Below, piece by piece: positions 237-41,104 of a DNA stretch of 64,000 bases. Location of the stretch: assembly GCA_964552395.1 (NCBI GenBank), contig CAZKGM010000004.1:4749-68748 (forward strand). Reading direction: 5' to 3'. Positions within the stretch are counted from its first letter, which is position 1. Each line of letters opens with the position of its first letter. Made by a program: the position numbers and the translations under genes. The notes under the pieces were generated by a model. The model saw only the letters and a list, made by a program, of their open reading frames with translations, was not told the origin of the DNA and made no database searches. This stretch comes from an uncultured Thermoanaerobaculia bacterium (GTDB taxonomy: Bacteria > Acidobacteriota > Thermoanaerobaculia > Thermoanaerobaculales > Sulfomarinibacteraceae).

Positions 237-273
237 TGTGGAGTCCCGTACCATCATAGCAGGAGGCTGATCT

Positions 274-392
274 GTGCCTCGGCCAACACCTTGGGCACCT
301 TGACTGGGCTGCGGACAACCACTACCTCGCCTCGAGCCGCCGGGCCCGGCCGGAGCGTGAGGCCGCGTATGGCCGGTGCTCGTCAGCTCACC
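274..392 (+). repeat. intergenic repeat element, copy A (left arm plus diverged, shortened core)
   Basis: GTGCCTCGGCCAACACCTTGGGCACC...CTCGAGCCGCCGGGCCCGGCCGGAGCGTGAGGCCGCGTATGG aligns with the family consensus (see findings). The right part is diverged. Confidence 0.6.
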
Positions 393-2033: not shown

Positions 2034-2207
2034 CGTTCGGTTTTCGACCCTGTGCGATTTGGGGAGTTTTGCAAGAGCCTCACGTATCACTTTCTCACAC
2101 TCTTCCGCCGGGCCGGCCCGGAGCGTGCGGACGCGTATGATGGTTTCGATCGAGAGCCCAGCGAGATCAAGAATGCACAGGGGATAACAGCAGTGCCGAG
2201 ACCTGGG
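2034..2207 (+). repeat. intergenic repeat element, copy B (variant-2 right end)
   Basis: CCGCCGGGCCGGCCCGGAGCGTGCGGACGCGTATGATGGTTTCGATCGAGAGCCCAGCGAGATCAAGAATGCACAGGGGATAACAGCAGTGCCGAGACCTGGG. The left arm is diverged, so the left boundary is approximate. Confidence 0.7.
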
Positions 2208-2334
2208 CTCATGAGTTGGAACAGCGTGGCGGGGGCTCGTTCTTCGCTGAAAGTGAGGACTGGCTCACAATGGCGGAACGGTACGACTGGCGCCGTTTCG
2301 GAGATGACTTGCTGCGCGATTCGGAGGGAAGCCG

Positions 2335-4620: not shown

Positions 4621-4654
4621 AGATGCGCTCCGCCCATCGGCACAGGGATGATAC

Positions 4655-5000
4655 GTGCCTGGGCCGACACTTCTGGTACCTTCGCTGAGCCGCCACTCGC
4701 CACGACCTTACCTGGTTGCGCCGGGCCGGCCTGGAGCGTGCGGACGCGTATGATGAGTTAGCCCGGATCGTTCACTCGCGATCTACTGCGACCGACGATA
4801 CGCCAGCCAGCGCCGTGCTCTTCGCGTCTCGGTGTCCTCAACGTACCCTCCGAGTATGCCTGCGGCACCTCGACGCTCAGAGCCCAGTGCTGACAAGCGT
4901 CTCGCCGGTCTCGCTACGATCGCTCATGAACGTACCGGGCTCGATCGGAAGCTCAGCGAGTTCAACAATGAGCAGGGGATGACAACAGTGCCGAGACCTC
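4655..5000 (+). repeat. intergenic repeat element, copy C (long variant with about 182-bp internal segment 4756..4937)
   Basis: The left arm and core GTGCCTGGGCCGACACTTCTGGTACC...GCGCCGGGCCGGCCTGGAGCGTGCGGACGCGTATGATG are followed by the extra segment. The element then resumes GGCTCGATCGGAAGCTCAGCGAGTTCAACAATGAGCAGGGGATGACAACAGTGCCGAGACCTC. Confidence 0.75.
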
Positions 5001-5164
5001 AACGCATGTGCTGCGCCCCCGGTGCCTTTCCTGCAATCCCAGTAGGTACCAGGAACGCGACCCAAAGCTCGTCTCCATGCCCCGAGTCGTCAGGCCGTCC
5101 AGCTGCCGGCCGCCTTTCGTTGGCCGCCCGCTCCGCCCGTCTCAGACCGCTGAGGTCGGCCCGC

Positions 5165-7122: not shown

Positions 7123-7197
7123 CTGAGATGTGGTCGCAGGACGGCCGCCGGGCACTCTGGCGTCTGTGAACAGCTGGGGATGGTGAAGCCACGGATC

Positions 7198-7344
7198 GGT
7201 GCCCGGGCCGACACCTCAACACCCTTGGTGAGGTGCCACCCACCATCACCTCACCTCGAGCCGTCGGACCGGCCCGGAGTGAGCGGACGCGTATGGTGGT
7301 CTCGATCGAGAGCTCAGCGAGCGCAGATTCATGTGCCGGGTACC
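7198..7344 (+). repeat. intergenic repeat element, copy D (near-complete, variant-1 ends)
   Basis: GGTGCCCGGGCCGACACC...GGTGAGGTG-ccacccaccat-CACCTCACC-TCGAGCCGTCGGACCGGCCCGGAGTGAGCGGACGCGTATGGTGGTCTCGATCGAGAGCTCAGCGAGCGCAGATTCATGTGCCGGGTACC. The ends GGTGCCCGG / CCGGGTACC are inverted repeats. Confidence 0.8.
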
Positions 7345-7375
7345 TTTTCCAGGAGGTGTTCCCCTCCGTCGGTCT

Positions 7376-9448
7376 CTACTCCTCCGAGGCGTCGTAGACC
7401 ACGCGGCCATCGCAGAGCGTCAATCGAATCTCGATCGGGGCAGGGAGCTCGGCGGCAAGGTCCCGAACGTTCCCGGAGAGGACGAGGAGGTCGGCCAGCA
7501 TCCCCGGATGGATCTTCCCCTTCCGCTTCGACGAGTACTCGGTCCATGCAGCCGCAGTGGTATAGGCGCCGAGCGCCTGTTCGAGCGTAACGTGCTGATC
7601 GGTATCGCCCTCCGTCCACGGGCGCCGCCGGACGGCATGGCGCACGCCTTCGCGGACATCGCAGGAGACGATGGGCCAGTCACTGCCGAAGACGAGAACC
7701 GCTCCGCTGCGAAGGAGCGCCTTCCATGCGAACGCCGAATTCCACTCGTCGTGCGGCACCATTTTGTGCCACAGCGTCATTGGAGGGCGCTCGTGCAAGG
7801 GTTGCATGGAGGCGACGATTTGCTCCGTCCCGAAGCGCGGGATGTCCTCCGGATGGCACATCTCGATGTGCTCGACGCGGTGAGGAATGCGGTGGCCTCG
7901 CGCCTGATCGACGCGGGCGTTGCTCCGGCGCGCTCGAGCGATGGCGTCGAGCATCGATCTGACCGAACCGTCCCCGACACAGTGGGCGGCAACCTGCATT
8001 CCCAATCCGTCGGCGAGCGCGACCAGGGCGTCCAGCTCTTCCTGACTGAACTCCGGTACGCCTTCGGGTGGAGCTTCGTCAAGGCGGTAGGCCGTCGTTT
8101 TCTCGACGACGCCATCCATGAAAACCTTGATGGTGTCGCAGCGCAGCTTGCAGTCCACGTCCACGAACTCGGGCATCTGCTCCCTTCGATGGGGGTTCTC
8201 CCGTTGCAGATAGGGATGCACGAAGGTCTTCCGGACGGTATCCCGAACATGCTTCGAACAGGCGTGGATGTCGTCGATGATCGGATACCTCTCGCGATAC
8301 GCTTCGTCCTGCGCCAGTTGTGCGATGGGCGCATGTCGCGCTTCACCCGCTTCGTCGAGCAATCCGACGAGCTCCTCGTGCAGCTCGGCGGCACTGAGCT
8401 TGCGCCGGCGCGCCTTCATCAGGGCATCGCGCACGCGCGCCGCACGGAGGACGTCCTCGAGCATATTGCTGTCGGCCACGGCGCCGCACGAAGTGTTGAT
8501 GCGGATCGGAAGCTCCCCGCGCTGCTCGAGCTCCAGCACGAGCAGCAGGAAGGCGATGTCCTGGGCCGGCTGCGCGAGCGCCATGCGATGGACGGTCGTG
8601 ATGCCCAGACGCACGAGTTGCCGGCAGACGGTCTTGAGATCCTCAACCTGTTGTTCGAGAGGAGTGGGGAAGCGGGCGGTGAGGGGCCCGCTGATGAAGT
8701 GGGTCACTTCCGGTTCTCGGAACTCGCCGCTCGGCAGGACATCGGCTCCCAGGATGATGTTGTGGTCCAGGTGCAGCGCTTCGATCATGGGAGGGTAAGG
8801 CGGCATGGGGTGGAGGAGGCCGGCTTCCTCAAGAGCCTTGGTGTTGGCCCAGCACGTATGGAGATCGTGCGCATAGATCAGCAGTGGGTGGTCCGCGACG
8901 ATGTCGTCCAGGTATGTGCGGCAGTGAGCGGAAGGAATGATGGGCGGGTCCGCGTAGTGCAGACCGAAGCAAGTCAGGAGTGAAGCATCGGCGCGTTCCT
9001 TGGCGTACGCTTCGAGCTTCTTCCGGAGCCCCTTCGCATTTTCGACGCCTTCCAGGTCGCAGCTCTGGAGACGCAGCATCGCAACCGTGAGATGCAGATG
9101 TGAGTCGGTCCACCCCGGCACGACGCTGCTGCCTTCGGCGTCGTAGACCGTGGTGCCGTCGCCGATCAGCGGGGAGATGGAGCCTGCGTCGCCGATTCTC
9201 GTGATGACGTTTTTCCGAATCGCGATATCGCAGACGCTCTCCGAGCCATCCTCGAACACGAGCGCGTTGCGAATAACGATGTCGGCGGTTCGGGTTGCGT
9301 CATGGTCAAGGGGGGTTTCGAGGAGAGGAGTGGTGTCGACCCGGGGGACGCTCGGGCCGACCGATCGCCGCGCCGCCTTCCGAAGATGGGGATAGGTGTG
9401 GTGGATTCGTGTGCGCAGGAGCTCTCCCGCGTGTTTCGGACATCGCAT
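7376..9448 (-). CDS. amidohydrolase family protein (Amidohydro_3-type metal-dependent hydrolase)
   Basis: 690 aa. N-terminal beta-sandwich pattern ADIVIRNALVFEDG...VVPGWTDSHLHL (H-x-H metal site). Later HCVGDG, HRVEHIEM and FGSDWP motifs are typical of the TIM-barrel amidohydrolase superfamily. The first ~40 codons are uncertain. Confidence 0.8.
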   Translation of the reverse strand: MRCPKHAGELLRTRIHHTYPHLRKAARRSVGPSVPRVDTTPLLETPLDHDATRTADIVIRNALVFEDGSESVCDIAIRKNVITRIGDAGSISPLIGDGTTVYDAEGSSVVPGWTDSHLHLTVAMLRLQSCDLEGVENAKGLRKKLEAYAKERADASLLTCFGLHYADPPIIPSAHCRTYLDDIVADHPLLIYAHDLHTCWANTKALEEAGLLHPMPPYPPMIEALHLDHNIILGADVLPSGEFREPEVTHFISGPLTARFPTPLEQQVEDLKTVCRQLVRLGITTVHRMALAQPAQDIAFLLLVLELEQRGELPIRINTSCGAVADSNMLEDVLRAARVRDALMKARRRKLSAAELHEELVGLLDEAGEARHAPIAQLAQDEAYRERYPIIDDIHACSKHVRDTVRKTFVHPYLQRENPHRREQMPEFVDVDCKLRCDTIKVFMDGVVEKTTAYRLDEAPPEGVPEFSQEELDALVALADGLGMQVAAHCVGDGSVRSMLDAIARARRSNARVDQARGHRIPHRVEHIEMCHPEDIPRFGTEQIVASMQPLHERPPMTLWHKMVPHDEWNSAFAWKALLRSGAVLVFGSDWPIVSCDVREGVRHAVRRRPWTEGDTDQHVTLEQALGAYTTAAAWTEYSSKRKGKIHPGMLADLLVLSGNVRDLAAELPAPIEIRLTLCDGRVVYDASEE

Positions 9449-9501
9449 ATCGCCTCCTCAGTCGAGAGATAACGCCGGCGGCAATGGAATGCAACCGGAG
9501 T

Positions 9502-9566
9502 GGTGCCTGGGCCGGCACTTCTTGTACTTTCACTGGGCTGCCACCCGCCGAGATCAGCCCTCGGAC
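9502..9566 (+). repeat. intergenic repeat element, copy E (left-arm fragment)
   Basis: GGTGCCTGGGCCGGCACTTCTTGTACTTTCACTGGGCTGCCACCCGCCGAGATCAGCCCTCGGAC. It overlaps the last codons and stop (9554..9556) of the minus-strand kinase gene. Confidence 0.6.
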
Positions 9567-11818
9567 AGGTTCATCTTGTGCAGCAATGCCCTGTACCGGG
9601 GGTCGCTACGTACGGGATCGAAAAATGGAAAGGTTTTGATCGGTACGACCAGCGGGTCACGGGCCTCGACCGCTCGGTCCCACCAGTGAAAGGCCGCGTC
9701 CCAGTCCTCGAGGCCGACGTAGCCGAGCGCGAGCGTCGACGGCGGTATGTAGGCCTTCGCTGACATCGCCTCCGTCCGTTCGAGCAGCTTCAGCGCATCG
9801 TCCCGCCTTCCGGCCCGGCCGTAGGCGAGGGCCAGATACCCGATCGTGATAGGTGTCCCGCCCGAGAGCTCGCGCGCTTCCTCGAGCGCGGCCACGGCCT
9901 CGTCGGGCGTGTTGCGTTCGATGCAGGCGAGACCGATGACCAGGTGTCCGAGGAAATGGGTCGGGTCGAGCGCAAGCATGTGCCGGCCCTCGTCGTGCAT
10001 CCTCTCCGGGCGGTGTCTCAGGTACTCCACGGTGCTGACCCACCAGCGAACCAGCAGCGACAACGGGTCGCTCTGAAGCATCGCGGCGACTTCGGCCTCC
10101 GCCTCATCGATTCGCCCGTGGGGTATCAGACCGGCAATCGCGTAGCGCAATCGGACTGTCGGCGACTCCCGGTTGAGCTTGTGGGCGCGACTGAACTCGC
10201 GATCGACCTCGAGCCAGTTGTAGTCGAGCTCCTTGCGGAGCATGCCGAGCAGAGCGTGGGTCTCGGCAAGGTCGTCGTCGAGCTCGAGAGCCCGCAACGC
10301 GTGCCACATGCCCTCCGCGAATGCCTCGCGGGGCGACAGGCCGCCGAAGAATCCGAGGTACCAATACAGCTCCGCCAGCGAGTCATGGGTCAGGGCGAAG
10401 TTCGGGTCGAGTTCGATTGCACGCTTGAAGCACTGCAACGCCGTCTCCATGGCCTCCGGTGTCCCCCTCGCGAAGTAATGACGGCCCTCGAGGAACAGCG
10501 AGTGAGCCTCCGGGTCGACGGCGGGCCGGCGTTGACCGCGTTCCTCCTCCTTGAGCCCGATCCGCAGCCGCTCGACGATCGCCTCGGCGATCTCGTCTTC
10601 GAGGGCCAGGATGTCAGTCAGCTCGCTGTCGAAGCGCTCGCTCCACAGGTGGCTTGCGTCGGCCGTCGTGACCAGCTGCACGGCAATCCGCACTCGCTGG
10701 CCAGCGCGCCGCACACTGCCCTCGAGGATGCTGTCGACGTCCAATCTCGCCCCGGCCTCGTGTACGTCGAGGCCCATCCGGGCGACAGCAAACGACGAGG
10801 TGCGGGCGATCACCCGCAGTCCCGGAACCCGGGTGAGCACGTTGATGATCTCCTCGGCAAGACCTTCGCAGAGGTAGTCGTCCTTCTCGTCGCCGGACAT
10901 GTTGGCGAACGGCAGCACGGCGATCGATGCTCGCTCCCGATCGACGCCCGCCGCCGGGCCCGTTTCGATCGCCGCCGCCAGCTCGTCGGCCGACTGAAAC
11001 CGCTTCCCTGCGTCCTTCTCCAGGCATTTCGTGACCAGCCGGGCGATTCTCGGGTTGACCCCGGTGAGCGGCGACGGATCGTCACGAAGCAGCGCGACGA
11101 GCGTTCCCGCCTCAGAGCTCCCCACGAAGGGACGCCGCCCGGCCAGCATTTCATACAGCACCGTGCCGAGGCTGAAGAGGTCGCTGCGTGCGTCGACCAT
11201 TCGCCCCCCGGCCTGCTCGGGAGACATGTAGCCGATAGTCCCTATCACGGTGCCCTCGCGAGTGAGCGGTGCCTCGATCGAGCGCGTTTCGGTCTCGGCA
11301 TCCGCCACCTCGTGGGAGGCGGCGAGGCCGAAGTCGAGGATCTTGATTCGACCGTCCGCACACAGAAAGATGTTGGAAGGCTTGATGTCGCGGTGTACCA
11401 CGCCCTTGCCGTGGGCCGCGCCAAGTCCGCTGGCCGTCGCGACGCCGATCTCCCGCACCCGTCGCCAGGGCAGCGGGCCGGGTTCCTTACGGAGATGCTC
11501 GCGCAAGGTCTCCCCTTCGAGAAGCTCGGTCACCGAGTAGGTGACCTCGCCCTCGGTGTCGAAGTCGAAGATCTCGAGGATGTTCGGATGGGAGAGGGCA
11601 GCGACGGCTTTGGCCTCACGTTGGAACCGGCGCAGGCGGTCGGGATCGGCCGCCACCTCCTCCGGCAGCACCTTGATCGCGACATCCCGATCCAGGCGTT
11701 CGTCGTAGGCCCGGAAGACCACACCCATCCCACCCGCGCCGATCTGCTCCACGATGCGGTAGTGGCCGAGAGTGCGGCCGATCAGGTCGTCCATGGTTGT
11801 AGATCCCAGCGCGCCCAT
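9554..11818 (-). CDS. serine/threonine protein kinase with TolB-N-like domain and C-terminal TPR repeats
   Basis: 754 aa. Hanks kinase motifs GAGGMGVVFRA, AIK, HRDIKPSNIF, DFGLA, GYMSPEQ. Then IAVLPFANMSGD..DYLCEGLAEEI (a module common in TPR-linked kinases and cyclases), then TPR-like repeats. The start could be ATG 11794 (MDDLIGRTLGHY). Confidence 0.9.
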   Translation of the reverse strand: MGALGSTTMDDLIGRTLGHYRIVEQIGAGGMGVVFRAYDERLDRDVAIKVLPEEVAADPDRLRRFQREAKAVAALSHPNILEIFDFDTEGEVTYSVTELLEGETLREHLRKEPGPLPWRRVREIGVATASGLGAAHGKGVVHRDIKPSNIFLCADGRIKILDFGLAASHEVADAETETRSIEAPLTREGTVIGTIGYMSPEQAGGRMVDARSDLFSLGTVLYEMLAGRRPFVGSSEAGTLVALLRDDPSPLTGVNPRIARLVTKCLEKDAGKRFQSADELAAAIETGPAAGVDRERASIAVLPFANMSGDEKDDYLCEGLAEEIINVLTRVPGLRVIARTSSFAVARMGLDVHEAGARLDVDSILEGSVRRAGQRVRIAVQLVTTADASHLWSERFDSELTDILALEDEIAEAIVERLRIGLKEEERGQRRPAVDPEAHSLFLEGRHYFARGTPEAMETALQCFKRAIELDPNFALTHDSLAELYWYLGFFGGLSPREAFAEGMWHALRALELDDDLAETHALLGMLRKELDYNWLEVDREFSRAHKLNRESPTVRLRYAIAGLIPHGRIDEAEAEVAAMLQSDPLSLLVRWWVSTVEYLRHRPERMHDEGRHMLALDPTHFLGHLVIGLACIERNTPDEAVAALEEARELSGGTPITIGYLALAYGRAGRRDDALKLLERTEAMSAKAYIPPSTLALGYVGLEDWDAAFHWWDRAVEARDPLVVPIKTFPFFDPVRSDPRYRALLHKMNLSEG

Positions 11819-11842: not shown

Positions 11843-11970
11843 GGTACCGAGGCTGCTTCCACACGTCGAACCGCCGGACCGGCTCGGAGCCTGCGGACGC
11901 GTATGACGGTCACGATCGACAGCTCAGCAAGTTGATGCAGGAGCAGGATGACAAGTGTGTCGCGACCTGG
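11843..11970 (+). repeat. intergenic repeat element, copy F (short left arm, variant-2 right end)
   Basis: GGTACCGAGGCTGCTTCCACACGTCGAACCGCCGGACCGGCTCGGAGCCTGCGGACGCGTATGACGGTCACGATCGACAGCTCAGCAAGTTGATGCAGGAGCAGGATGACAAGTGTGTCGCGACCTGG. Confidence 0.75.
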
Positions 11971-12121
11971 ACCCATGAGCAGGTCCGGCCTGGCTGGCGA
12001 CTTCTCGGGGAACGAGCTCACTGCGGATAACTTCCCACCTACCGGAGGTTGACTCGACGCGGCTCTGCAGATACGATCGGACCAGTGTAGCCAGAACAAC
12101 AGAACCGGGAACGGGAGGAGG

Positions 12122-13552
12122 ATGACGATGTCACGGTCCGGAAACCTGGTCTGGCTTGGTTGCATCCTCGGCGTGCTCGCTGTCGGATGCGCCAGCACAT
12201 ACCAGGAGACAAGCTTCCAATCCACTCCAATGTCACCCGACGGCTGGGTGGCGAAGGTCGACGAGTTCGTGATCATCGCGGACGCGTCGCAGTCGATGTC
12301 CGAGTTCTCGGACAGAGCCGTCAAGCTGTCTGTCGAGCGCGATCTCCTGGCAAGCATGAACCGCGCCCTCCCCGAGCTCGCTTACTCCGACGGGCTCCGT
12401 GTGTTCGGACGTGGCAGCTGCCTGCCGAAAGGCAGGACCAACCTGATCGAGGGCATGGGCGCCTACTCGACCGCTGAGCTCGGCGATGCGATCGCCCGCC
12501 TGAAGTGCACGGGCGGCAGAAGTCCCCTCGACCTGGCACTCATAGCTACCGCCTCGGACCTGCACAGTACGGGAGGCCGGAAGGCGGTTGTCGTGGTCAG
12601 CGACGGAATGAACATGAACGAGAGTGAGGTCAACGCCGCCACCGCACTGAAGCAGAAGTTCGGTGACGACCTCTGCATCTACACCATCCACATCGGCAAC
12701 GAGGGCATCGGCGGCTCGTTACTCAAGAGGGTCGCGGACGCCGGCGGCTGCGGGTTCGCGACCTCGGCGGCGGCGCTGACCGGGAATGCGGAGATGGCGA
12801 AGTTCGTCGAGGAGGTCTTTGTCGAGCGCGACAGCGATGGCGACGGTGTAGCCGATCGTGTCGACAAGTGCCCCGGTACGCCGAAGGGGGTCGCGGTCGA
12901 CGCCAACGGCTGCCCGCCGGACGCCGACGGCGACGGCGTACCGGACTACCTCGACAAGTGCCCAGACACTCCTGGTGGTGTGACCGTTGACGCCAACGGC
13001 TGTCCGCCTGACACCGACGGCGACGGCGTGCCGGACTACCTCGACAAGTGCCCGAACACCCCCAGTGGTGTGACCGTCGACGTCAATGGCTGTCCGATAG
13101 ATTCCGACGGCGACGGGGTGCCGGACAGCCTGGACAAGTGCCCGAATACGCCGCGCGGGGTGCCGGTCGACGCCAGCGGCTGCCCGCCGGCCGGGATCAT
13201 CGTCCGTGGCGCCGAGTGGTCGGTACAGGGAAAGGTCCTGTTCGACCTCAACAAGGCCAGCATCAAGAGAGAGGCGGAGGAGGTTCTCGGAACGGTGGCC
13301 AACTTCCTCAAGAAGAACCCACAGTACAAGGTCGAGATCCAAGGCCACACCGACTCGACCGGGACCGCGGGGTGGAACATGAAGCTCTCCCTGATGCGTG
13401 CCGACTCGGTCAAGGCGTTCCTCGTCGATCACGGAGTTGGCGCCGACCGGCTCACTACGAAGGGCCTCGGCCCCCACGAGCCGGTGGCCCCGAACGACAC
13501 CGCCGCGGGGCGCCGGCTGAACCGCCGCGTCGACTTCAAGCCATCTGAGTGA
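12122..13552 (+). CDS. OmpA-family lipoprotein with vWA domain and four thrombospondin type-3 (calcium-binding) repeats
   Basis: 476 aa. RBS GGGAGGAGG directly precedes ATG 12122, so the second ATG at 12128 may be the true start. Lipobox LAVGC. vWA MIDAS-like IIADASQSMS. 4x DxDGDGVxDxxDKCPxTP repeats. C-terminal OmpA motif GHTDSTGTAGWNMKLSLMRADSVKAFL..NRRVDF. Confidence 0.9.
   Translation: MTMSRSGNLVWLGCILGVLAVGCASTYQETSFQSTPMSPDGWVAKVDEFVIIADASQSMSEFSDRAVKLSVERDLLASMNRALPELAYSDGLRVFGRGSCLPKGRTNLIEGMGAYSTAELGDAIARLKCTGGRSPLDLALIATASDLHSTGGRKAVVVVSDGMNMNESEVNAATALKQKFGDDLCIYTIHIGNEGIGGSLLKRVADAGGCGFATSAAALTGNAEMAKFVEEVFVERDSDGDGVADRVDKCPGTPKGVAVDANGCPPDADGDGVPDYLDKCPDTPGGVTVDANGCPPDTDGDGVPDYLDKCPNTPSGVTVDVNGCPIDSDGDGVPDSLDKCPNTPRGVPVDASGCPPAGIIVRGAEWSVQGKVLFDLNKASIKREAEEVLGTVANFLKKNPQYKVEIQGHTDSTGTAGWNMKLSLMRADSVKAFLVDHGVGADRLTTKGLGPHEPVAPNDTAAGRRLNRRVDFKPSE
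12830..13201 (+). repeat. 4 x 93-bp in-frame tandem coding repeats (TSP3 units) inside the vWA-OmpA gene
   Basis: DSDGDGVADRVDKCPGTPKGVAVDANGCPP / DADGDGVPDYLDKCPDTPGGVTVDANGCPP / DTDGDGVPDYLDKCPNTPSGVTVDVNGCPI / DSDGDGVPDSLDKCPNTPRGVPVDASGCPP. Confidence 0.9.
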
Positions 13553-13651: not shown

Positions 13652-13831
13652 GGTGCCAGGGCCGGTGCCAGGGTCGACACTTTTGGCATTCTTGGTGAGC
13701 TGCTACCCAGCGCTACCTCACCTCGGACCGCCGGGCCGGCCCGGAGCGTGCGGACGCATATGATGGTCTCGATCGCGAGCTCAGCGGGTTCAGGAATGCG
13801 TCGAGAAGGGCGGAATGGCGTGACTGGCACC
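13652..13831 (+). repeat. intergenic repeat element, copy G (best-preserved, variant-1 ends)
   Basis: (GCCGGTGCCAGG x2)GTCGACACTTTTGGCATTCTT-GGTGAG-ctgctacccagcgctac-CTCACC-TCGGACCGCCGGGCCGGCCCGGAGCGTGCGGACGCATATGATGGTCTCGATCGCGAGCTCAGCGGGTTCAGGAATGCGTCGAGAAGGGCGGAATGGCGTGACTGGCACC, followed by CTTTTCCTTTTCC. The ends GGTGCCAG / CTGGCACC are perfect inverted repeats. Confidence 0.85.
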
Positions 13832-13848
13832 TTTTCCTTTTCCGGTTC

Positions 13849-14238: not shown

Positions 14239-14274
14239 TGCTGGTCCTCCTTGGCGTCGGCGCCGGGTCAGATG

Positions 14275-14401
14275 GGTGCAAGGGCCGACACTGTTTGCAC
14301 TTTGGCTGGCCCGCCACCCACCTCCATCTTACTTCGATCCGCCGTGCCGACTCGGAGCGTACGGACTCTCGATCGAGAGCTCGGATGGCGTCACTGGTAC
14401 C
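14275..14401 (+). repeat. intergenic repeat element, copy H (core with ~12-nt deletion)
   Basis: GGTGCAAGGGCCGACACTGTTTGCACTTTGGCTGGCCCGCCACCCACCTCCATCTTACTTCGATCCGCCGTGCCGACTCGGAGCGTACGGA^CTCTCGATCGAGAGCTCGGATGGCGTCACTGGTACC. The GCGTATGATGG block is missing. Confidence 0.75.
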
Positions 14402-14704
14402 TCTTCTTCTTCAACAGGCGCCTTTTCGATACGAAGTCCACGGCACAGAACCGGCGGTGGTTCATGGTGGACATCCGGGCGGTGCTCCTTCTCGGGCCGG
14501 CCATCATCCGGGACGAGCTCAAGGAGGTTTCCGAGCTTGCCGGCATGATGTTGCTCCGGAAGGGGAGCTATCCCGCGGCGCAGCCGGTGAGCTCGCACGA
14601 CTGGGAGGCTATTGTCGCCCTCCGGGCGTGAAAACGACCTACGAGCCTGGTTGACGCCGTGCGCCGCTCCTCGTAGTGTGGTAGAAACGCATCCGGAGGG
14701 TGCC

Positions 14705-18690: not shown

Positions 18691-18693
18691 GAC

Positions 18694-18739
18694 GAGCTCA
18701 AGAATGGGTCGAGAAGGGCGGAGCGGCGTGACTGGCATC
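18694..18739 (+). repeat. intergenic repeat element, copy I (right-arm fragment, variant 1)
   Basis: GAGCTCAAGAATGGGTCGAGAAGGGCGGAGCGGCGTGACTGGCATC matches the right arm of copy G (GAGCTCAGCGGGTTCAGGAATGCGTCGAGAAGGGCGGAATGGCGTGACTGGCACC). It is followed by a CCCTTTTCCCCTTTCTCC tract. Confidence 0.7.
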
Positions 18740-18896
18740 TACTCCCTTTTCCCCTTTCTCCAAACGCCTTCGGCTTGGAGATGGGCAACGCGCGCACGCT
18801 TGACGAACGCCCTCTAGTGACCGGCACGCTTTGTGAGGCCGGCAGGTGTGATGAGGCCCACGCGTGCTGACGGCGGGCGCCTGTAGACTCTCTGGG

Positions 18897-21176
18897 ATGG
18901 AACCACCGAGATCCTGGCGGACGGCGCTCATTCTTGCCGGACTCGTCGTGCTTGCTGCGCCGACGCTGCCGGCCCAGAGCGCGCGGCGCGCCGCGGCGAG
19001 GGTCAGGCCGGGTTCAGGGTGGTTGTCACGCGGCATCGGCGGTGGCGGGGCGCTCTACTCGCCGGCGATCAGCCCTCATGAGCCCGACGAGATCGTCATC
19101 GCCACCGACATGTCCGCGGTCTTCTGGAGCACCAGCTTCGGAGCTCGCTGGCGGGTCGTGCCGTTCGGCGAACTCCAGGGCGGCGTCTCCAGCGAAGTTC
19201 GCTTCACCGCCGACCGGGAGGTTCTTTACGCCATCAATTGTGCAGAGGATCTCCGGATCCCGGTCAGGAGCGACGACGGTGGACGAACCTGGGCACCCCT
19301 GGCGAGCGATCCCACCGACGGCGAGGCATACACCCTGTTCACCGATCCCGCCTCGAGCGACCGCCTGCTCGTCGCGGCCTACGACCGCCTCTACCTTTCG
19401 AACGACGGCGGCGCCAGCTTCACCGAGGTTCACCGCACCCCGGACGAGCATGTCGCCGGCGTCATCTGGAACGGTGACGACGTGTTCGTCGGCACTCGGG
19501 AGGGGCTCCTCTACTCCGTCGACGGCGGCGCCACGTTCACCCTCGCCGCGTCAGGCGGCATCCCGTCGGATGAGGAAATCGTCTCGTTCGCCGGGGCGAC
19601 GTCCGGCGGAACCGTCAGGTTGTACGCCGTCACTCTGAGCGCAGGAGACGTCTGGCCACTGATCACCGGCGGCGAGATGTGGGAGTACCGCGACGTCTAC
19701 CGCCTCGACTGGGGGCACGGCGGCTGGGTCGCCATCGGAAGCGGTCTGCCAGGGGGCGCCCATCCGTTCTTCGTTGCAGCTTCACCGGGTGACATCGATA
19801 CCGTGTACCTGGCGGGCGGGGATGTCGATACCTCCTTCCCCATCGTCTTCCGCTCCGGCGACGGCGGCGGCTCGTGGGTCAGCGTCTTCAGGACCTCGGA
19901 CAACGCCAACATCGCCACCGGCTGGAGCGGCAACGGCGGCGACCACGACTGGTGGTACGGCGAGTACGCCCTCGGCCTGGCGGTCGCGCCTACGGACCCA
20001 GACCGAGTCGTGCTCACCGATCTCGGGTTCGTCCACGTCAGCGACGATGGGGGGGTGACCTGGCGCCAGGCGTACGTGGACCGGTCCGGCGAGAACCCGG
20101 TCGGCGCCCCCACCCCGCGCGGCCGTGCCTACAGCGGCTCCGGACTCGAGGACACCAGCTCGTGGTGGCTCGAGTGGGCCGACCGCGATACCGTGGCCGC
20201 CGGCTTCTCGGACATCCACGGCATCGTCAGCACCGACGGCGGTCGCAGTTGGTCGGCCGGAGTGAGCCACGGCCTTCCTGACAACAGCACGTACTGCATC
20301 GTGGCCGACCGCGCGCGGGGGCTCCTGTACGCCGCCACCTCGTCGGTACACGACCTCTACCAGAGCACGCATCTCACCGACGACCGGATCGACAACGGCG
20401 TGGGCCGCGTCATGGTCTCGTCAGACCGCGGTGCGAACTGGCAGACCCTCCGCGACTTCGGCCTTCCGGTAGTCTGGCTGGCCCTCGATCCGGAAGACCC
20501 CGAGCGGCTCTACGCCAGCGTCGTCAACCGGACAGAGGGCGGGATCTGGACCACCGGCGAGCTTGGCCGGGGCCCCGCCGCCAAGTGGACGCGCCTCGCC
20601 CAGCCGCCTCGCACCGAGGGCCACCCGCTGGCTGTCCGCGTCCTGCCGGACGGCGCCCTTGCCGTCACTTACTCGGGGCGTCGCGACGCGGGCGGCGCCT
20701 TCACCACGAGCTCGGGCGTCTTCCTGAGCACCGACGGCGGCGCCAGCTGGGAAGACCGCTCCGACCCGGCCATGCTGCGCTGGACCAAAGACCTCGTCGT
20801 CGACCCCCACGACCCGAGCGGCGACACCTGGTACGTCGCCGTTTTCTCGCACTGGGGGAGCCCCCCGAACGAGGTCGGCGGTCTCTACCGCACCCGGGAT
20901 CGCGGCGCGACCTGGCAGCGGGTTGCCGAGCTGTACCGGGTCGAGTCATGCGCCATCGATCCTGTCGACCCCGAACGGCTCTTCCTCACCACCGAGACTC
21001 AGGGCATGTGGTCCACAACCAACCTGCGCGCCGCGACACCCCTGTTCACACCGGTCGCAGGCTACCCCTTCCGCCACCCCACCCGGGTCGTCTTCAACCC
21101 ATTCGACCCCGGGGAGGTGTGGGCCACCAGCTTCGGCAACGGTCTTCGCGTGAGCCGCGTGGGTGCCAGGCGTTAG
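18897..21176 (+). CDS. secreted BNR/Asp-box repeat protein (sortilin-Vps10 / GH74-like double beta-propeller)
   Basis: Track ORF 18864..21176. The likely start is ATG 18897 (MEPPRSWRTALILAGLVVLAAPTLPAQS). Nine S/T-x-D-x-G-x-(T/S)-(W/F) Asp-boxes: SDDGGRTW, SNDGGASF, SVDGGATF, SGDGGGSW, SDDGGVTW, STDGGRSW, SSDRGANW, STDGGASW, TRDRGATW. Confidence 0.85.
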   Translation: MEPPRSWRTALILAGLVVLAAPTLPAQSARRAAARVRPGSGWLSRGIGGGGALYSPAISPHEPDEIVIATDMSAVFWSTSFGARWRVVPFGELQGGVSSEVRFTADREVLYAINCAEDLRIPVRSDDGGRTWAPLASDPTDGEAYTLFTDPASSDRLLVAAYDRLYLSNDGGASFTEVHRTPDEHVAGVIWNGDDVFVGTREGLLYSVDGGATFTLAASGGIPSDEEIVSFAGATSGGTVRLYAVTLSAGDVWPLITGGEMWEYRDVYRLDWGHGGWVAIGSGLPGGAHPFFVAASPGDIDTVYLAGGDVDTSFPIVFRSGDGGGSWVSVFRTSDNANIATGWSGNGGDHDWWYGEYALGLAVAPTDPDRVVLTDLGFVHVSDDGGVTWRQAYVDRSGENPVGAPTPRGRAYSGSGLEDTSSWWLEWADRDTVAAGFSDIHGIVSTDGGRSWSAGVSHGLPDNSTYCIVADRARGLLYAATSSVHDLYQSTHLTDDRIDNGVGRVMVSSDRGANWQTLRDFGLPVVWLALDPEDPERLYASVVNRTEGGIWTTGELGRGPAAKWTRLAQPPRTEGHPLAVRVLPDGALAVTYSGRRDAGGAFTTSSGVFLSTDGGASWEDRSDPAMLRWTKDLVVDPHDPSGDTWYVAVFSHWGSPPNEVGGLYRTRDRGATWQRVAELYRVESCAIDPVDPERLFLTTETQGMWSTTNLRAATPLFTPVAGYPFRHPTRVVFNPFDPGEVWATSFGNGLRVSRVGARR

Positions 21177-21196
21177 GAAGCTGGGAGATCTTGACA

Positions 21197-21262
21197 GGCG
21201 CCTGGGGGGACACTTCTGACACTCTTGGTCGGCTTCCACCCACCACCCCTGCACCTCGAACA
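21197..21262 (+). repeat. intergenic repeat element, copy J (left arm; core replaced or diverged)
   Basis: GGCGCCTGGGGGGACACTTCTGACACTCTTGGTCGGCTTCCACCCACCACCCCTGCACCTCGAAC aligns with the left arms of copies D, G and L. Sequence to ~21333 may be a degenerate remainder. Confidence 0.55.
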
Positions 21263-21457
21263 GTCGTGCCGTACCGCTGGCCAAGCCGCTGCTGTGGTGT
21301 GGCGTGGGCAGTTGTCAGCATCACCCGTTTAGGTGACGCCATTCGATTCGCCTCAGCCTATCTTGATATTGCGCGATCTCCGTCGCACGCCACGAGCCCG
21401 TGGGGCCCGCGTCCGCGAGCTCCGGCACAGGCGAATCGACAGCAGGGGGGTGCACCG

Positions 21458-21670
21458 ATGGCGAGGTTCGATGACTGTATTCAGGCCGTCTTGGAGCCTG
21501 AGGGTGGTCTGGTTGACGACCCGGCCGATCCGGCTGCAAACTCCTGCCGGCCGGACCGACTGCTCCTCGAGGTGAGCCTCTATGTGGCGGCTCGCTACCG
21601 TGACATCGTCGAACGACGCCACGCATCGGAGAGCTTCCTCGCGGGTTGGTTGAATAGGGCGCACTCCTGA
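21458..21670 (+). pseudogene. truncated relic of a glycoside hydrolase family 108 (phage-type lysozyme) gene
   Basis: This is the 70-codon tail of the spurious track ORF 20585..21670. MARFDDCIQAVLEPEGGLVDDPADP.. matches the GH108 N-terminal signature (F..a...vL..EGGyvnDP.DPGG.T..GI), but the GG-T-x-x-GI continuation and the ~100 C-terminal residues are missing. Confidence 0.4.
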
Positions 21671-22248: not shown

Positions 22249-24675
22249 ATGAGCACGGCATCTGGGGGCACGACTCCAGCACAACCGGCGGGTTTCACGA
22301 TGGGGCCAAAGATCTGGCGTCTGATTCTCGACGCGGTCGGGGGTCCCGTGTTTCTCCACGACCTGCACTACCGCGTGATCCTGGCAAACGCGGCCTATTG
22401 CCGCGCAGCCGGCGTGAGCGAGGCGGACGCCCTGGGCAAACCCTACTGGGAGGTCTTTCCGCCGGGCGCGGGGCCGCGGCCCGGGTGCCGGGCTGCAACA
22501 CACGGGAAGGACCGTACCCCGAGCCCAGAGGACGTGCTCGTCGGGGAGAAGTACTTCTCCTCAGTGGACTACATGGTGCCCGACGACCAGGGGAGACCTC
22601 TCTACTTCTTGCATGTGCTCACCGACATCACCGAGCAGAGGCGGACCGAGGCCGCGCTGAGGGAGAGCGAGGCGCGCTTTCGCACCGTCATCGACACCGC
22701 GCAGGACGCCATCATCTCCCTCGATGGGGAATCCGACGTGATCACCGCCGCGAATCTGGCGTCCGAGAGGATCTTCGGCTACAGCAGGGAGGAGTTGATC
22801 GGGCAGAGCCTTCACGGCCTTCTCATGCCGGCCCGCTTTCTCGAGGCGAATGCGAAGGGTATGGCGGAATTCGCCAGGACAGGGGAAGGCGCGGCGGTCG
22901 GCAGGACCGTCGAGCTCGTCGCATTGCACAAGGACGGAACGGAGTTCCCCATCGAGCTCTCCCTCTCCGCCACGCACCTTCACGGAACGTGGTTCGCCAC
23001 CGGTATCGCGCGCGACATCAGCGAACGCAAGCGGGGGGAGGCCCTGCAAAGAGACCTGGCGGCGAAGTACAGTGCCATGTTCGAATCATCGTCCGACGCC
23101 ATCATGCTGCTCGACGACGACGTGTTGATCGACTGCAACGCGGCCGCCGTGCGGATGTTCGGCGGTTCCACATCCGACGACCTCACGGGCAGGCATCTCC
23201 TCGGGCTCTCGCCACCGGCCCAGCCGGGTGGCGGGGACTCCAGGAGCCTGGCGGAGAGGCTCATCGCCACGGCCCTTTCGAAGGGAAGCCTCCAGTTCGA
23301 GTGGCTGCATCGCCGGCTCGACGGCGCCGACTTCGTCGCCGATGTCCTGCTAACCGCCCTGGAGCTGGACGGCAAGCCGTTGCTGCAGGCCACGGTGCGC
23401 GACACCACCGAAGTCAGGCGATTGGCGTTGGAGTTGAAGGAAAGCGAGGAGCGTTACCGCAATATTACCGAGACGACGAGCGACTGGGCCTGGCAGACCG
23501 ATGAGAACGGCGCCTATGTCTATGTCAGCCACAAGATCATCGACGTCCTTGGTTACAGCCCGGAAGAGGTGTACGGAAAGACCCCCTTCGACCTGATGCC
23601 TGCGGAGGAGGCGGCGCGCGTGGGGGAGATCTTCAGTAACCTGGCCAGGTCAAAGTTGCCGTTCTCTTTTCGTGAGAACATCAACATTCACAAGGACGGC
23701 CATCCGGTCATTCTCGAGACCAGCGGAGTGCCGGTCCTTGGTGACGATGGAGAGCTTCGCGGCTATTTCGGGGTCGAACACGACATCACGCGGCGCAGAC
23801 AGCTGGAGGAAAAGGTCCGCGAAACGGAGGCCCAGTACAGGGTCATCTTCGAGCAGTCCGCGGACGTTACCTACCTCCTGGGCCGTGATGGGAAGTTCAC
23901 ATCACTGAGCCCTTCATTCGAGACTCTGACGGGCTGGCATCCCAAGGTGTGGGTCGGCAAGCCCTTCGCTCCCCTGATTCACCCGGACGACCTGCCGCGA
24001 GCCATGGAGATCTTCATGGAGGCTTGCTCCGGCAAGAGCTCACCGGACTTTGAACTGCGCGTAGCGAAGAAGTCCGGGGGCTACGTGGATGCCGAGCTCA
24101 GCATGGTACCGGTGGATATGAGCGACGGCACCGTCGTCATAGGGATTGCGCGGGACGTCAGCGCACGCAAGCGTGAGGAGGAGAGGATCCTCGTCCTTGC
24201 CACCACCGATGGACTCACGGGACTGAACAACCGACGCGAGCTCTCCGCCATCCTTGCCAAGGAGGTGGAGCGAACGGAGAGGTACGGCAGCCCTCTGTCT
24301 CTGATCATGTGCGACATCGACCACTTCAAGCAGGTCAACGATACGTTCGGCCATGAGGTGGGTGATCTGGTGCTCCGGGCTGTCAGCCAGCTGATGACAC
24401 AGAATACGCGTTTGCTGGACGTGGTAGCGAGATGGGGCGGGGAGGAGTTCATGGTTCTCCTGCCGCAATCGAATCTCGACGCTGCCTGCATTGTGGCGGA
24501 GAAGTTGCGCGCGTCGATCGCAGGGTTTCAGTTCGAGAAGATCGGTCACGTGACGCTGAGCCTTGGTGTGACCGGCTACACGCCGACGGATGACGTCGAG
24601 GCGATGCTGAAGCGGGTCGACGATGCGTTGTACAAGGCCAAGGACAACGGGAGAAACCGCGTCGAGATCGGATAG
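22249..24675 (+). CDS. multi-PAS sensor diguanylate cyclase (GGDEF domain)
   Basis: Track ORF 22156..24675; the start is uncertain (ATG 22249 or 22300). There are about five PAS/PAC modules (e.g. SEARFRTVIDTAQDAIISLD, SEERYRNITETTSDWAWQTD, TEAQYRVIFEQSADVTYLL). C-terminal GGDEF domain: TDGLTGLNNRREL..DIDHFKQVNDTFGHEVGD..RWGGEEF..ALYKAKDNGRNRV. Confidence 0.9.
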   Translation: MSTASGGTTPAQPAGFTMGPKIWRLILDAVGGPVFLHDLHYRVILANAAYCRAAGVSEADALGKPYWEVFPPGAGPRPGCRAATHGKDRTPSPEDVLVGEKYFSSVDYMVPDDQGRPLYFLHVLTDITEQRRTEAALRESEARFRTVIDTAQDAIISLDGESDVITAANLASERIFGYSREELIGQSLHGLLMPARFLEANAKGMAEFARTGEGAAVGRTVELVALHKDGTEFPIELSLSATHLHGTWFATGIARDISERKRGEALQRDLAAKYSAMFESSSDAIMLLDDDVLIDCNAAAVRMFGGSTSDDLTGRHLLGLSPPAQPGGGDSRSLAERLIATALSKGSLQFEWLHRRLDGADFVADVLLTALELDGKPLLQATVRDTTEVRRLALELKESEERYRNITETTSDWAWQTDENGAYVYVSHKIIDVLGYSPEEVYGKTPFDLMPAEEAARVGEIFSNLARSKLPFSFRENINIHKDGHPVILETSGVPVLGDDGELRGYFGVEHDITRRRQLEEKVRETEAQYRVIFEQSADVTYLLGRDGKFTSLSPSFETLTGWHPKVWVGKPFAPLIHPDDLPRAMEIFMEACSGKSSPDFELRVAKKSGGYVDAELSMVPVDMSDGTVVIGIARDVSARKREEERILVLATTDGLTGLNNRRELSAILAKEVERTERYGSPLSLIMCDIDHFKQVNDTFGHEVGDLVLRAVSQLMTQNTRLLDVVARWGGEEFMVLLPQSNLDAACIVAEKLRASIAGFQFEKIGHVTLSLGVTGYTPTDDVEAMLKRVDDALYKAKDNGRNRVEIG

Positions 24676-24678
24676 ACG

Positions 24679-24845
24679 GGTGCCGGGACCGACACTTGTG
24701 GCACTTTCGTCGCGCCGCCACCCACCATCACCTGACGTTGAGCCGCCGGGCCGAGCCGGAGCGTGCGGACGCGTATGAGGGGCTAGATCGAGAGCTCAGC
24801 GGGTTCAGGAAGGAGTGGGGGAGGGCGAACGAGGTGACGAGCCCC
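24679..24845 (+). repeat. intergenic repeat element, copy L (near-complete)
   Basis: GGTGCCGGGACCGACACTTGTGGCACTTT-CGTC-gcgccgccacccaccatcacct-GACG-TTGAGCCGCCGGGCCGAGCCGGAGCGTGCGGACGCGTATGAGGGGCTAGATCGAGAGCTCAGCGGGTTCAGGAAGGAGTGGGGGAGGGCGAACGAGGTGACGAGCCCC. It begins 4 nt after the GGDEF gene stop. Confidence 0.8.
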
Positions 24846-25092
24846 CTCTTGCTGGTAGCCGGTGTAACGGCTTGTCCGGGGCTCACCCGGGAGATCGTGG
24901 CCGGAGTCGGAGCGGCGATGGTGATCAGTGCAGCGATACTCCCTCGCCCGGAGAGAGGCTGAGCCACGTCGGGACGAGGCTGCGAGAATCAAGCTCATGG
25001 TGTGGGATTCTCCGACACGCCGCGGCTCTGCACGCCTTCGGTCGGTCAGGAGGGAGGCTCTGGGGAGAGCATGATCGGCCAGAACGTGCCGA

Positions 25093-28347: not shown

Positions 28348-28458
28348 GGCGCGGAATCCGTCCGCGCCCGGGTCATCCCGCTACCAGTCTCCTCCCGTGA
28401 GGCGACCGGGCGCCGTACACGTACCCCTGGCTGCTATGATTCCGAGCGGAATCCAGCC

Positions 28459-28818
28459 ATGGGTCGAAGAACCTATCTTGTTGCGTGCCTGGTGGTTCTT
28501 CTCCTCGGAGGAGGGTTGCGTCTGTACCGCCTGGCGGATCGCTCGCTGTGGCTGGACGAGGCCAAGGTCGCGGGCCCGGAGTTCGTCTACGGCCGGAGCC
28601 ACCGAGATCATCCCGAGGAGTACGCTGCAGAGTTCCGTACTCTGGTGGGGGCGGAGACGAGAGAAGCCTGGCTGATCTTCTCCCACGTATCCTCCAAGGA
28701 GAAGCGGCGCCTGCTTGACGACCTCGCCTCGGAATGGAGGTTCCAGCCGGTCGTCACCGCGCGCGGCGCCGGTCTGTATCATGGCCGAGCCATCAGAGGT
28801 GCGGAGCTCCTGCGATGA
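28459..28818 (+). CDS. in-frame internal-deletion derivative of a GT39 (ArnT/PMT-like) glycosyltransferase paralog (119 aa; probably non-functional as a glycosyltransferase)
   Basis: MGRRTYLVACLVVLLLGGGLRLYRLADRSLWLDEAKVA|GPEFVYGRSHRDHPEEYAAEFRTLVGAETREAWLIFSHV... This equals residues 1-37 plus the last ~80 residues of the 493-aa protein encoded at 36673..38154. 30 nt of upstream DNA are also shared. Confidence 0.6.
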   Translation: MGRRTYLVACLVVLLLGGGLRLYRLADRSLWLDEAKVAGPEFVYGRSHRDHPEEYAAEFRTLVGAETREAWLIFSHVSSKEKRRLLDDLASEWRFQPVVTARGAGLYHGRAIRGAELLR

Positions 28819-28873
28819 GGCCACCCCGACGGCCCGAGATGAGGCCGCTATCGATTCAGGGAGGTGATTGAAA

Positions 28874-36437: not shown

Positions 36438-36653
36438 ATGAAGAGGTGTTTCGGTTTCTTGCTGGCAAACCTGGTGGCAGTCGGTGCAATGGCGCTCATC
36501 CCACCGCAGTACTACCAGCAGCGCCTCTTGAAGGCCGCGATCGACGCCAGCCGCCGGCCCGTCTCACTCGCGGCGTATCCTCGAACCCCGCTCATCGGGG
36601 CCCTCCGCCGGACATACAATGGGACGCCGGCCAGTTGTCCTCGGCTGCTATGA
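36438..36653 (+). CDS. possible small membrane-anchored protein
   Basis: Inner ATG of track ORF 36381..36653. MKRCFGFLLANLVAVGAMALIPPQYYQQRLLKAAIDASRRP.. One hydrophobic helix, weak RBS, moderate GC3. Confidence 0.3.
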   Translation: MKRCFGFLLANLVAVGAMALIPPQYYQQRLLKAAIDASRRPVSLAAYPRTPLIGALRRTYNGTPASCPRLL

Positions 36654-36672
36654 TTCCGAGCGGAATCCAGCC

Positions 36673-38154: not shown

Positions 38155-38168
38155 GTTCACTCCTATCC

Positions 38169-38230
38169 GGTCTCGCTACGATAGCTCATGAGTAGTTCAG
38201 GCTAGCGGAGTGCGAGAGTGCCGAGGGTGG
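38169..38230 (+). repeat. intergenic repeat element, fragment M0 (right part of the long variant)
   Basis: GGTCTCGCTACGATAGCTCATGA (38169..38191) matches 22/23 with 4907..4929 inside the extra segment of copy C. It is followed by GTAGTTCAGGCTAGCGGAGTGCGAGAGTGCCGAGGGTGG, which resembles GAGTTCAACAATGAGCAGGGGATGACAACAGTGCCGAGACCTC. Confidence 0.55.
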
Positions 38231-38270
38231 TGACCCCACGCGAGGAAGCCGCCGTGCATCAGGAAGGACT

Positions 38271-38345
38271 GGTGCAGGGGCCGGCACTCTTGGCACTTTC
38301 GCGTCGGCCTCGGGCGCCAAGCATGACGTCGTCACCTGGCGCCAC
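38271..38345 (+). repeat. intergenic repeat element, copy M (left-arm fragment)
   Basis: GGTGCAGGGGCCGGCACTCTTGGCACTTTCGCGTCGGCC... aligns with the left ends of copies E, H and L. The remainder is diverged. Confidence 0.5.
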
Positions 38346-38382
38346 CGGTGCGACGGCGAGGAGGCCGGCATGGAGCCCGGCG

Positions 38383-40536: not shown

Positions 40537-41104
40537 CGACCCCCGCTTCGTCGCTGCGGGTATGATTGTGCGGAGGCAGATAATGGCGGGCCCCTTTCTC
40601 GGCGTTCACCATGCTAGCCCGCGACCGACCCCTGTCAAGGCCCGCATTCTCGCCATGGTGTTTCGTTGGGGAGCAGCCTGCCTGTTCCCGCGGATGTGCC
40701 GAGCGATGCCGACTACGGGCGCGCGCAGCCTCCTCCTCGGTGGATGCCAGAGCCGACAGTCTTGGGATTCTCAAGCGGCGCCACTGAACGGTGCCGAGCA
40801 GTGCCACATCTCATATCCGACATTGCGATGCTCCGGGTCGTCATCCGCTGGCCATCCTGTCGCGGGTGGCCGCTCCCTCCGGTCATGGACCGGGGCCGCC
40901 TCCGCCGCGACCGGACCGCCATGAAACACCTCCGTCGTTGCTCTCGAAGCCCGGCCCCAGGCTGGCGGCGGGGTACTCCGGATCGACGCGCGTGATGACG
41001 AGCTGCTCAATGCCTCTGATGCCTGCGTTCTCGAGGATGTCTTCGAGGGTGGCTATCGGATCGCCTCGCCTCCGTCCGCGGCTTCACGGTGGGTGGGATG
41101 AGGA

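Follow-up and report, generated by a model that had tools for sequence, protein, structure and literature searches.

The 147 bases at positions 7198-7344 of the 64-kb stretch of DNA analysed here (the window) are one copy, copy D, of a previously undescribed small non-coding repeat family of one uncultured Acidobacteriota clade. The family is a mosaic, in which a constant core is combined with interchangeable arms over a length of about 147-285 nt, and there is no sign of a conserved folded RNA in the repeat. Our preferred reading, which we hold with somewhat better than even confidence, is that it represents a non-autonomous MITE-like family that is homogenised by gene conversion and serves as homology for recombination. 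Dense repeats influence how genomes change: in this lineage, copies mark almost every gene-content difference between related strains and species, and almost all nucleotide differences that separate two near-identical strains are concentrated in them.

Architecture of the repeat and its copies in the window

Copy D lies between a small plus-strand gene that ends at 7122 and a minus-strand amidohydrolase gene (7376-9448), and its 147 bases span exactly from terminus to terminus of an inverted repeat. The left terminus, GGTGCCCGG (7198-7206), pairs with the right terminus, CCGGGTACC (7336-7344), over nine positions (eight Watson-Crick pairs and one G.T pair), and the tract TTTTCC follows at 7345-7350. 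Pairing of the ends had been stated in a preliminary description of this DNA for copy G as well, where GGTGCCAG (13664-13671) and CTGGCACC (13824-13831) indeed match at eight of eight positions. Within copy D, a 9-bp stem, GGTGAGGTG/CACCTCACC, joins 7227-7235 with 7247-7255, and both this stem and the 6-bp stem of copy G (13694-13699 with 13717-13722) lie exactly where they had first been placed. The conserved core occupies approximately 7262-7318, and the copy holds ACGCGT, TCTCGATCGAGA and GAGCTC.

Across the family, left arms come in several alternatives, every one of which begins GAYN-GGTGCCWGG with a terminus that is at times tandemly duplicated, while right arms of varying length end in the type G(Y)G.ACYGGYRCC (CCNGGYRCC), next to which comes a pyrimidine tract. 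The core reads CCGGAGCGTGCGGACGCGTATGATGGTCTCGATCGA(A/G)AGCTCAGCGAG, the terminal inverted repeats can be written as GGTGCCNGG ... CCNGGYRCC, and the long form of the terminus is GGTGCCAGTCACGCCATTCCGCC. The most intact copy, at 2650-2933 of contig L006, carries near-perfect terminal inverted repeats of about 30 nt (GNTGCCAGTCACGCCATTCCGCCATTGT..GTGG). The short right arms of copies D, G and H make their termini obvious. Variant-2 copies hold an extra segment, CAGGGGATGACACCAGTGCCGAGACCTCGACTCATGAGCTGG..., and for these the ends were initially misjudged: the proposed inverted repeats CCTGGGCCGACAC...GTGCCGAGACCTGG do not pair past GTGTCG, and what had been taken for a right terminal repeat instead copies the left end in direct orientation, with agreement at about 12 of 18 positions. 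Their true inverted right terminus lies 25-85 nt further right, at 2280-2294 in copy B and 5018-5026 in copy C. More generally, it was borne out that the element is multi-copy, that its terminal inverted repeats are imperfect, that it strongly favours one strand and that its right end has a T/C tract; pyrimidine tracts follow the right ends of D, G, H, the fragment at 18693 and most copies on other contigs.

The core pattern occurs seven times in the window, compared with 0.06 occurrences expected. A profile built from four full copies gave 15 matches at E<0.01, every one on the plus strand and within the first 42 kb, and a second profile built from 32 copies gave 13 window matches, again all on the plus strand, for a total of 13-15 copies by profile. 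The copies and fragments are as follows.

269-391, plus strand: copy A, a left arm and degenerate core directly upstream of an esterase gene
2035-2294, plus strand: copy B, an atypical left arm, core and long right arm, with the right terminus GGTACGACTGGCGCC at 2280-2294
4650-5026, plus strand: copy C, a left arm and half core (4650-4761), with the remaining core and right arm at 4937-5010
7193-7350, plus strand: copy D, with a GATC lead-in, termini, hairpin, core and tract; a short-right-arm variant with an orthologue in a sister MAG
9496-9563, plus strand: a left-arm-only fragment (model positions 8-67) between amidohydrolase and kinase genes, both on the minus strand
11856-11980, plus strand: a core and right-arm fragment (model positions 63-188) between the kinase and OmpA-like genes
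13652-13845, plus strand: copy G, with a duplicated left terminus (13652 and 13664), 6-bp hairpin and core
14269-14410, plus strand: copy H, with both termini and internal deletions; ends as in D and G
18693-18762, plus strand: a right-arm-only fragment that ends GGCGTGACTGGCATC, with a pyrimidine tract after it
21162-21276, plus strand: a long-left-arm fragment without core, GGTGCC.GG ... GGCGCCTGGGGGGACAC ...
21408-21593, minus strand: a degenerate partial copy, from two insignificant matches (E 3.7 and 9.1)
24668-24856, plus strand: copy L, full length with a degenerate right terminus, beginning at the stop codon of a GGDEF gene
38264-38350, plus strand: a left-arm fragment
40738-41207, plus strand: a weak left-arm piece (40738-40790) and a degenerate core piece (41112-41207) upstream of an epimerase gene

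The partial copy at 21408-21593, if real, is the sole minus-strand trace in the window. The right terminus of copy C, CCCGGTGCC (5018-5026), is followed by TTTCC, that of copy G, GGCGTGACTGGCACC (13817-13831), by the tract TTTTCCTTTTCC, and that of copy H, GGCGTCACTGGTACC (14387-14401), by TCTTCTTCTTC. The core of copy C is split by a unique 175-nt insertion (4762-4936), which we rejected as another repeat since it does not recur in the fetched sequence beyond a single 25-nt match at 38167-38191. We likewise rejected the idea that 14269 and 18693 are one copy split by inserted cargo, since copy H is complete at both termini. The fragments at 9496-9563 and 11856-11980 are complementary halves of the element around one minus-strand Ser/Thr kinase gene (9554-11818), a layout that resembles a kinase gene sitting within one copy.

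The genes around the copies are ordinary chromosomal ones, encoding esterase, penicillin amidase, cytochrome c, amidohydrolases and Ser/Thr kinases, along with OmpA-like proteins, a GGDEF protein, an ECF sigma factor and others. The window also contains repetition of other kinds. A segment of approximately 440 nt (28389-28827) is 79-85% identical to 36603-36787 plus 37899-38163, the ends of a PMT_2 glycosyltransferase-like gene (36619-38154), and looks like an internally deleted paralogue or pseudogene of it. Diverged repeat units, mostly about 174-177 nt apart, occupy 50328-51505 within a minus-strand ORF (48858-51713) that has no Pfam match and may encode an unrecognised repeat-domain protein, and three tandem 90-nt units in an OmpA-like gene (12830-13188) correspond to thrombospondin type 3 repeats.

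Folding, palindromes and possible host functions

The left-arm hairpin had been described as covarying between copies, with a structure conserved over changing sequence that was taken as selection on a folded RNA or single-stranded DNA. Among 32 distinct copies, none of the six pairs of this hairpin shows a change on both sides; 69.9% of cells are paired, compared with 71.4% in shuffles, and 485 of 500 shuffles do equally well or better. The stems listed for copies L, A and C can be drawn at only 4 bp each, with the 5' side of the L stem one register off relative to D and G. The "C-rich loop" can in most copies serve as the 3' strand of a GGTGGG/CCCACC stem, whose few compensatory changes are not significant. 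When the hand-drawn helices were combined, 79.2% of cells were paired (78.5% in shuffles) and nine pairs showed double-sided changes where 5.4 were expected, a count reached by 17 of 500 shuffles. RNAalifold returned zero consensus pairs on the full 32-sequence alignment and only weak structures on near-identical full copies.

Folding energies point in the same direction. For whole elements on both strands, z-scores against dinucleotide shuffles ranged from -2.6 to +1.6, so that neither strand is unusually stable; the core tended, if at all, towards lower stability than shuffles (mean z of +0.4 and +0.9), and two left-arm segments were mildly stable (mean z of about -0.8 to -0.95). The comparison with Rfam that the preliminary description had called for gave no match over the whole window on both strands at gathering thresholds, and none for copy G at E<=10. 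With no significant covariation, ordinary stability and a decayed orthologue of copy D (D', discussed below), selection on a folded nucleic acid is not supported. A left-arm hairpin, GTGCCA...TGGCAC, recurs in most copies. TGGCAC was considered as part of a sigma-54 -24/-12 promoter and rejected by inspection, as the spacing is wrong.

The repeat is non-coding, with arm indels that are not multiples of three and stop codons in some copies. A small conserved ORF or leader peptide was rejected as a candidate, given that frames after AGGGGA-GTG stop at differing places and three copies hold an in-frame TAG. A related proposal, to which we assign very little probability, is that the repeat is a transcribed cis-regulatory leader or small RNA, whose right arm supplies a ribosome-binding site (AGGGGA) and a start (GTG or ATG). 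Many copies do end 6-50 nt ahead of a co-oriented start codon, and the right terminus holds ATGGCGGAATGGCGTGAC, which opens the peptidase S41 frame in L006. Approximately 40% of copies, however, precede an opposite-strand gene or lie antisense in minus-strand gene pairs; neither sigma-70 promoters nor intrinsic terminators are in excess within the element relative to shuffled sequence; and the absence of an Rfam match, of covariation and of a conserved downstream frame further weighs against such a role.

The sequence ATGGCGGAATGGCGTGAC (MAEWRD) is found at L006 2908 (plus strand), at approximately 813 on the minus strand of contig L142, and at window position 2270. In L006 the frame that it opens is 513 aa long, and in L142 it opens what on our own reading seems to be a DUF35-like zinc-ribbon/OB-fold frame. 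The repeat may thus donate start codons and N-termini to genes. Copies can in any event create apparent gene starts, with the ATG of the right terminus opening at least one reading frame.

The core had been described as a string of perfect palindromes, which holds for some window copies; family-wide the palindromes are mostly imperfect. Copies B and G have the 14-nt palindrome in perfect form and D in imperfect form (CGGACCGGCCCGG). Of the palindrome pairs in the alignment, 103-109 is G-C in just 5 of 28 copies and 137-149 is unpaired in 14 of 25. These observations bear on the possibility, which we consider improbable, that the repeats are domesticated host elements of the REP/BIME type, in which a functional core would act as a site for nucleoid proteins or gyrase, or as an mRNA-stabilising or terminating structure. 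Consistent with that idea, the core is the best conserved part and nearly identical between paralogues and two genomes, the mosaic architecture is like that of BIMEs, copies are strictly intergenic, and the six-base palindromes CTCGAG, ACGCGT, CGATCG, GAGCTC and TCATGA would suit dimeric proteins. Such palindromes nevertheless number approximately 5-6 per 180 nt, mildly above the 2.7 expected by chance, and no 20-40-nt REP palindrome headed GTAG or CGTC is present. Moreover, copies lie both sense and antisense to transcripts, and the orthologous copies D' and L139_5405 lose the core, which indicates that a given locus is unconstrained. That the core is conserved better than the termini is the reverse of what a purely selfish transposon would show, and may reflect either a host function or gene conversion.

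Distribution, orientation and the search for a mobility partner

In total, approximately 40-43 distinct copies or fragments were gathered from the window and related contigs. A first scan of reference genomes used a loose pattern with 17 specified bases, so that most matches were chance ones, and the real matches fell on only two contigs of the Acidobacteria MAG ALJrbin.24 (GCA_022340775.1), a sister to the window organism. A stricter scan of metagenomes yielded 11 contigs with the repeat, and several JGI metagenomes were shown by exact-protein look-ups to contain the window organism. A BLAST search of plasmids with the consensus and a search of viral contigs with the exact core pattern returned nothing, and distant relatives (amidase 81-83% identical) had zero copies in 14-18 kb.

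Copies fill most intergenic gaps across more than 35 kb, with 17 copies or fragments from position 1800 of the upstream contig L129 to window position 25000, and they keep one orientation whichever way the neighbouring genes point. Flanking genes are found in all four possible arrangements, including a plus-strand fragment between two minus-strand genes. On other contigs the good copies were likewise on a single strand (6/6, 5/5, 7/7, 5/5 and 9/9), and the only opposite-strand traces are short degenerate fragments, namely the insignificant one at 21408-21593 of the window and another at L126 3072-3119. Classical cut-and-paste elements that end in inverted repeats would not be expected to share one orientation, and the strict co-orientation of copies with such ends is the unusual property of this family; should it follow replication, a strand-specific route of insertion would be indicated. 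At most loci the element lies on the G-rich strand, but the link between GC skew and orientation is weak, agreeing at some loci and disagreeing at two, and skew is too noisy a proxy for replication direction on contigs of 5-16 kb.

Strict co-orientation is the reason why HUH-like or fork-targeted insertion and an integron-like cassette role are retained here as minority hypotheses. The first of these, which the preliminary description had favoured on the basis of subterminal hairpins and strand bias, holds that the repeat is a substrate of an HUH transposase (IS200/IS605, RAYT or IS91-type), with hairpins read on one strand and insertion into the lagging-strand template giving a single orientation. 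In its favour, co-orientation is absolute inside every contig, the element strand is mostly G-rich, the GTGCCA...TGGCAC hairpin is widespread, and the conserved GAY 4-6 nt before the left terminus could be a target; copies are flanked by GAYN on the left and T/C-rich sequence on the right. No copy shows a target-site duplication, as HUH elements predict; the flanks of D, G, H, C, L006 and L122 hold no direct repeat. Since many copies are old, this absence may also reflect decay.

Other evidence makes the HUH proposal unlikely in our view. The ends of IS200/IS605 elements are not inverted repeats, which the present ends are (approximately 30 nt in L006); moreover, an HUH substrate of this type would have subterminal hairpins that resemble each other at its two ends and lie on one strand, whereas no counterpart to the left hairpin was identified at the right end here, and the hairpin covariation is not significant. 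No transposase, RAYT, integrase or recombinase was found among the window genes, no Y1_Tnp, Y2_Tnp or RAYT adjoins any copy in the approximately 150 kb sampled, which is part of the genome, and no PF01797-type match occurs in about 70 ORFs scanned. An autonomous element with the same termini was not found in the window or in 154 fetched loci.

One candidate partner was examined and rejected. At 987-1511 of L142 lies a truncated IS91-family transposase with a Zn_Tnp_IS91 domain only, 7 kb upstream of a HigB/HigA pair and 165 nt from a 24-mer resembling the terminus of the repeat. Homologous IS91 copies (L152-L154) lack the element and its terminus, and their homology starts past the 24-mer, so that the remnant is unrelated to the repeat family. 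Close homologues of this transposase mostly lie on contigs that are very short, an observation suggestive of a multi-copy insertion sequence within these communities. L142 also carries a 14-nt inverted repeat, GTGAGATATGCGGG (8805-8819) and CCCGCATATCTCAC (8968-8981), around a partial copy, with similar sequence at 9125-9147 and 1548-1590, and a second small repeat may therefore be interleaved with the family in this contig.

Recombination among copies and comparison with known systems

In the sister MAG (GCA_022340775.1) the amidase protein is 89% identical, and the sites orthologous to A-D hold copies with unchanged orientation. Of the shared gaps, one precedes the esterase, two lie on either side of the amidase and one precedes the amidohydrolase; the occupation of so many of the same gaps indicates that the copies are old residents. 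A pair of filled and empty sites was not found, as sister sites A-D are all occupied and ten contigs of one population, compared across the amidohydrolase gene neighbourhood, have an identical layout with no empty site. In the one orthologous pair that was aligned in detail, D and D' are approximately 70% identical and share the short right arm, with the core and termini of D' decayed, while the genes flanking them are 82-90% identical. The copy has thus diverged faster than adjacent genes, which argues against a conserved function at that locus.

Paralogous cores, by comparison, are often nearly identical both within and between genomes. Between the strain contigs L129 and L127, 19 of the 21 differences over 4 kb fall inside two copies (L129 4372-4549 and 5474-5653), a pattern that may stem from gene conversion or from blending of assemblies at repeats. 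Gene conversion among copies is the best explanation for the near-identical cores and the confinement of strain differences to the element, taken together.

Differences in gene content between strains and between species have their breakpoints at or inside copies, some of which are chimeric. Chimeric copies in L123 and L127 fit alternative deletions, and the breakpoint between L126 and L122/L130 lies at the left terminus. Between the window and L142 it lies just past the right terminus of copy B, with homology picking up again at 2303; in L142 a HigB/HigA toxin-antitoxin pair (9157-9751) replaces the esterase upstream of the amidase, the latter being 95.5% identical in DNA. The window and the sister MAG have a gene-content breakpoint between C and D. 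These comparisons are between metagenome assemblies, in which mis-joins or blending are possible at repeats, and the copies are themselves likely points where assemblies of this lineage break or are mis-joined.

The recurrence of gene-content differences at co-oriented repeats invites comparison with integrons, in which the copies would be attC sites and a site-specific recombinase would insert and excise the intervening genes. Single-orientation arrays with a spacing of 0.6-2.5 kb, many intervening genes that are small, co-oriented, of unknown function and start 6-50 nt past a copy, a HigB/HigA pair between two partial copies in one strain, and variation across strains and species in the genes between conserved copies would all agree with this. 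Nonetheless, we judge an integron-like array to be very unlikely. By inspection, RYYYAAC (R'') and GTTRRRY (R') are absent and no AAC/GTT is present at the termini GGTGCCNGG and CCNGGYRCC, and the interior of the element does not fold as a single long imperfect hairpin. Neither a tyrosine recombinase nor IntI was detected across the 64-kb window, the 10 kb upstream of it (L129), L139 and L142, a span within which the array ends are not reached. Isolated copies also occur outside arrays (L122/L126/L130 and L006), and synteny is constant over the ten same-population contigs. Finally, crossovers lie at varied model positions (approximately 5, 18, 72, 105 and 175-190), which is more readily accounted for by homologous recombination between co-oriented repeats than by a site-specific recombinase with a fixed crossover point. 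A hybrid proposal, in which insertion or retention is tied to one strand (fork-coupled or through ssDNA) and the copies scaffold an integron-like region of fast turnover without IntI or attC, has in our estimation only a small chance of being correct.

We return to the MITE-like reading set out at the beginning. A separate transposase, acting in trans on the termini, would have spread the family, and resident copies would since have been kept alike through gene conversion. Being co-oriented, the copies may act as portable homology for RecA-type recombination, which would delete or swap the genes between them and so produce a cassette-like region. The strict co-orientation suggests that insertion or retention may be coupled to a polar process, such as replication.

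Several known systems share some of these features. As in sedentary-integron attC arrays (Vibrio VCRs), the repeats are species-specific and co-oriented, separate short genes of unknown function and toxin-antitoxin pairs, and enclose gene content that differs among strains; unlike attC sites, they lack R''/R' core sites and a single long imperfect hairpin, their breakpoints vary, no IntI was detected in the span covered, and they exceed the usual attC length of 57-141 nt. In their strand bias, lack of target-site duplication and hairpin near one end they resemble the PATEs and REPtrons derived from IS200/IS605 (HUH Y1), from which they differ by their inverted-repeat ends, the lack of a matching right-end hairpin and the absence of a Y1 transposase in the sequence sampled here.

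The BIME/REP mosaic elements of E. coli and Pseudomonas, whose REPs are tagged GTAG/CGTC (PMC3733652), offer a parallel in organisation. The present family similarly consists of interchangeable modules in intergenic positions, shows tandem and partial arrangements and is a likely substrate for recombination and gene conversion, but its unit is 150-285 nt long, it lacks the 20-40-nt REP palindrome headed by a tetranucleotide, its copies do not alternate in orientation, and no RAYT was found.

Bacterial MITEs that carry terminal inverted repeats (reviewed in PMC10969869 and PMC3184786) include Correia/NEMIS in Neisseria and ERIC/IRU, RU-2 and RU-3 in enterobacteria. Our repeats depart from them in showing no visible target-site duplication, a core conserved better than the ends, a single orientation per contig, a very high density and no known partner insertion sequence. 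Like bacterial MITEs, they are non-coding, multi-copy, intergenic elements of 100-300 bp with terminal inverted repeats, and they occur as internal deletion variants and can reshape neighbouring genes.
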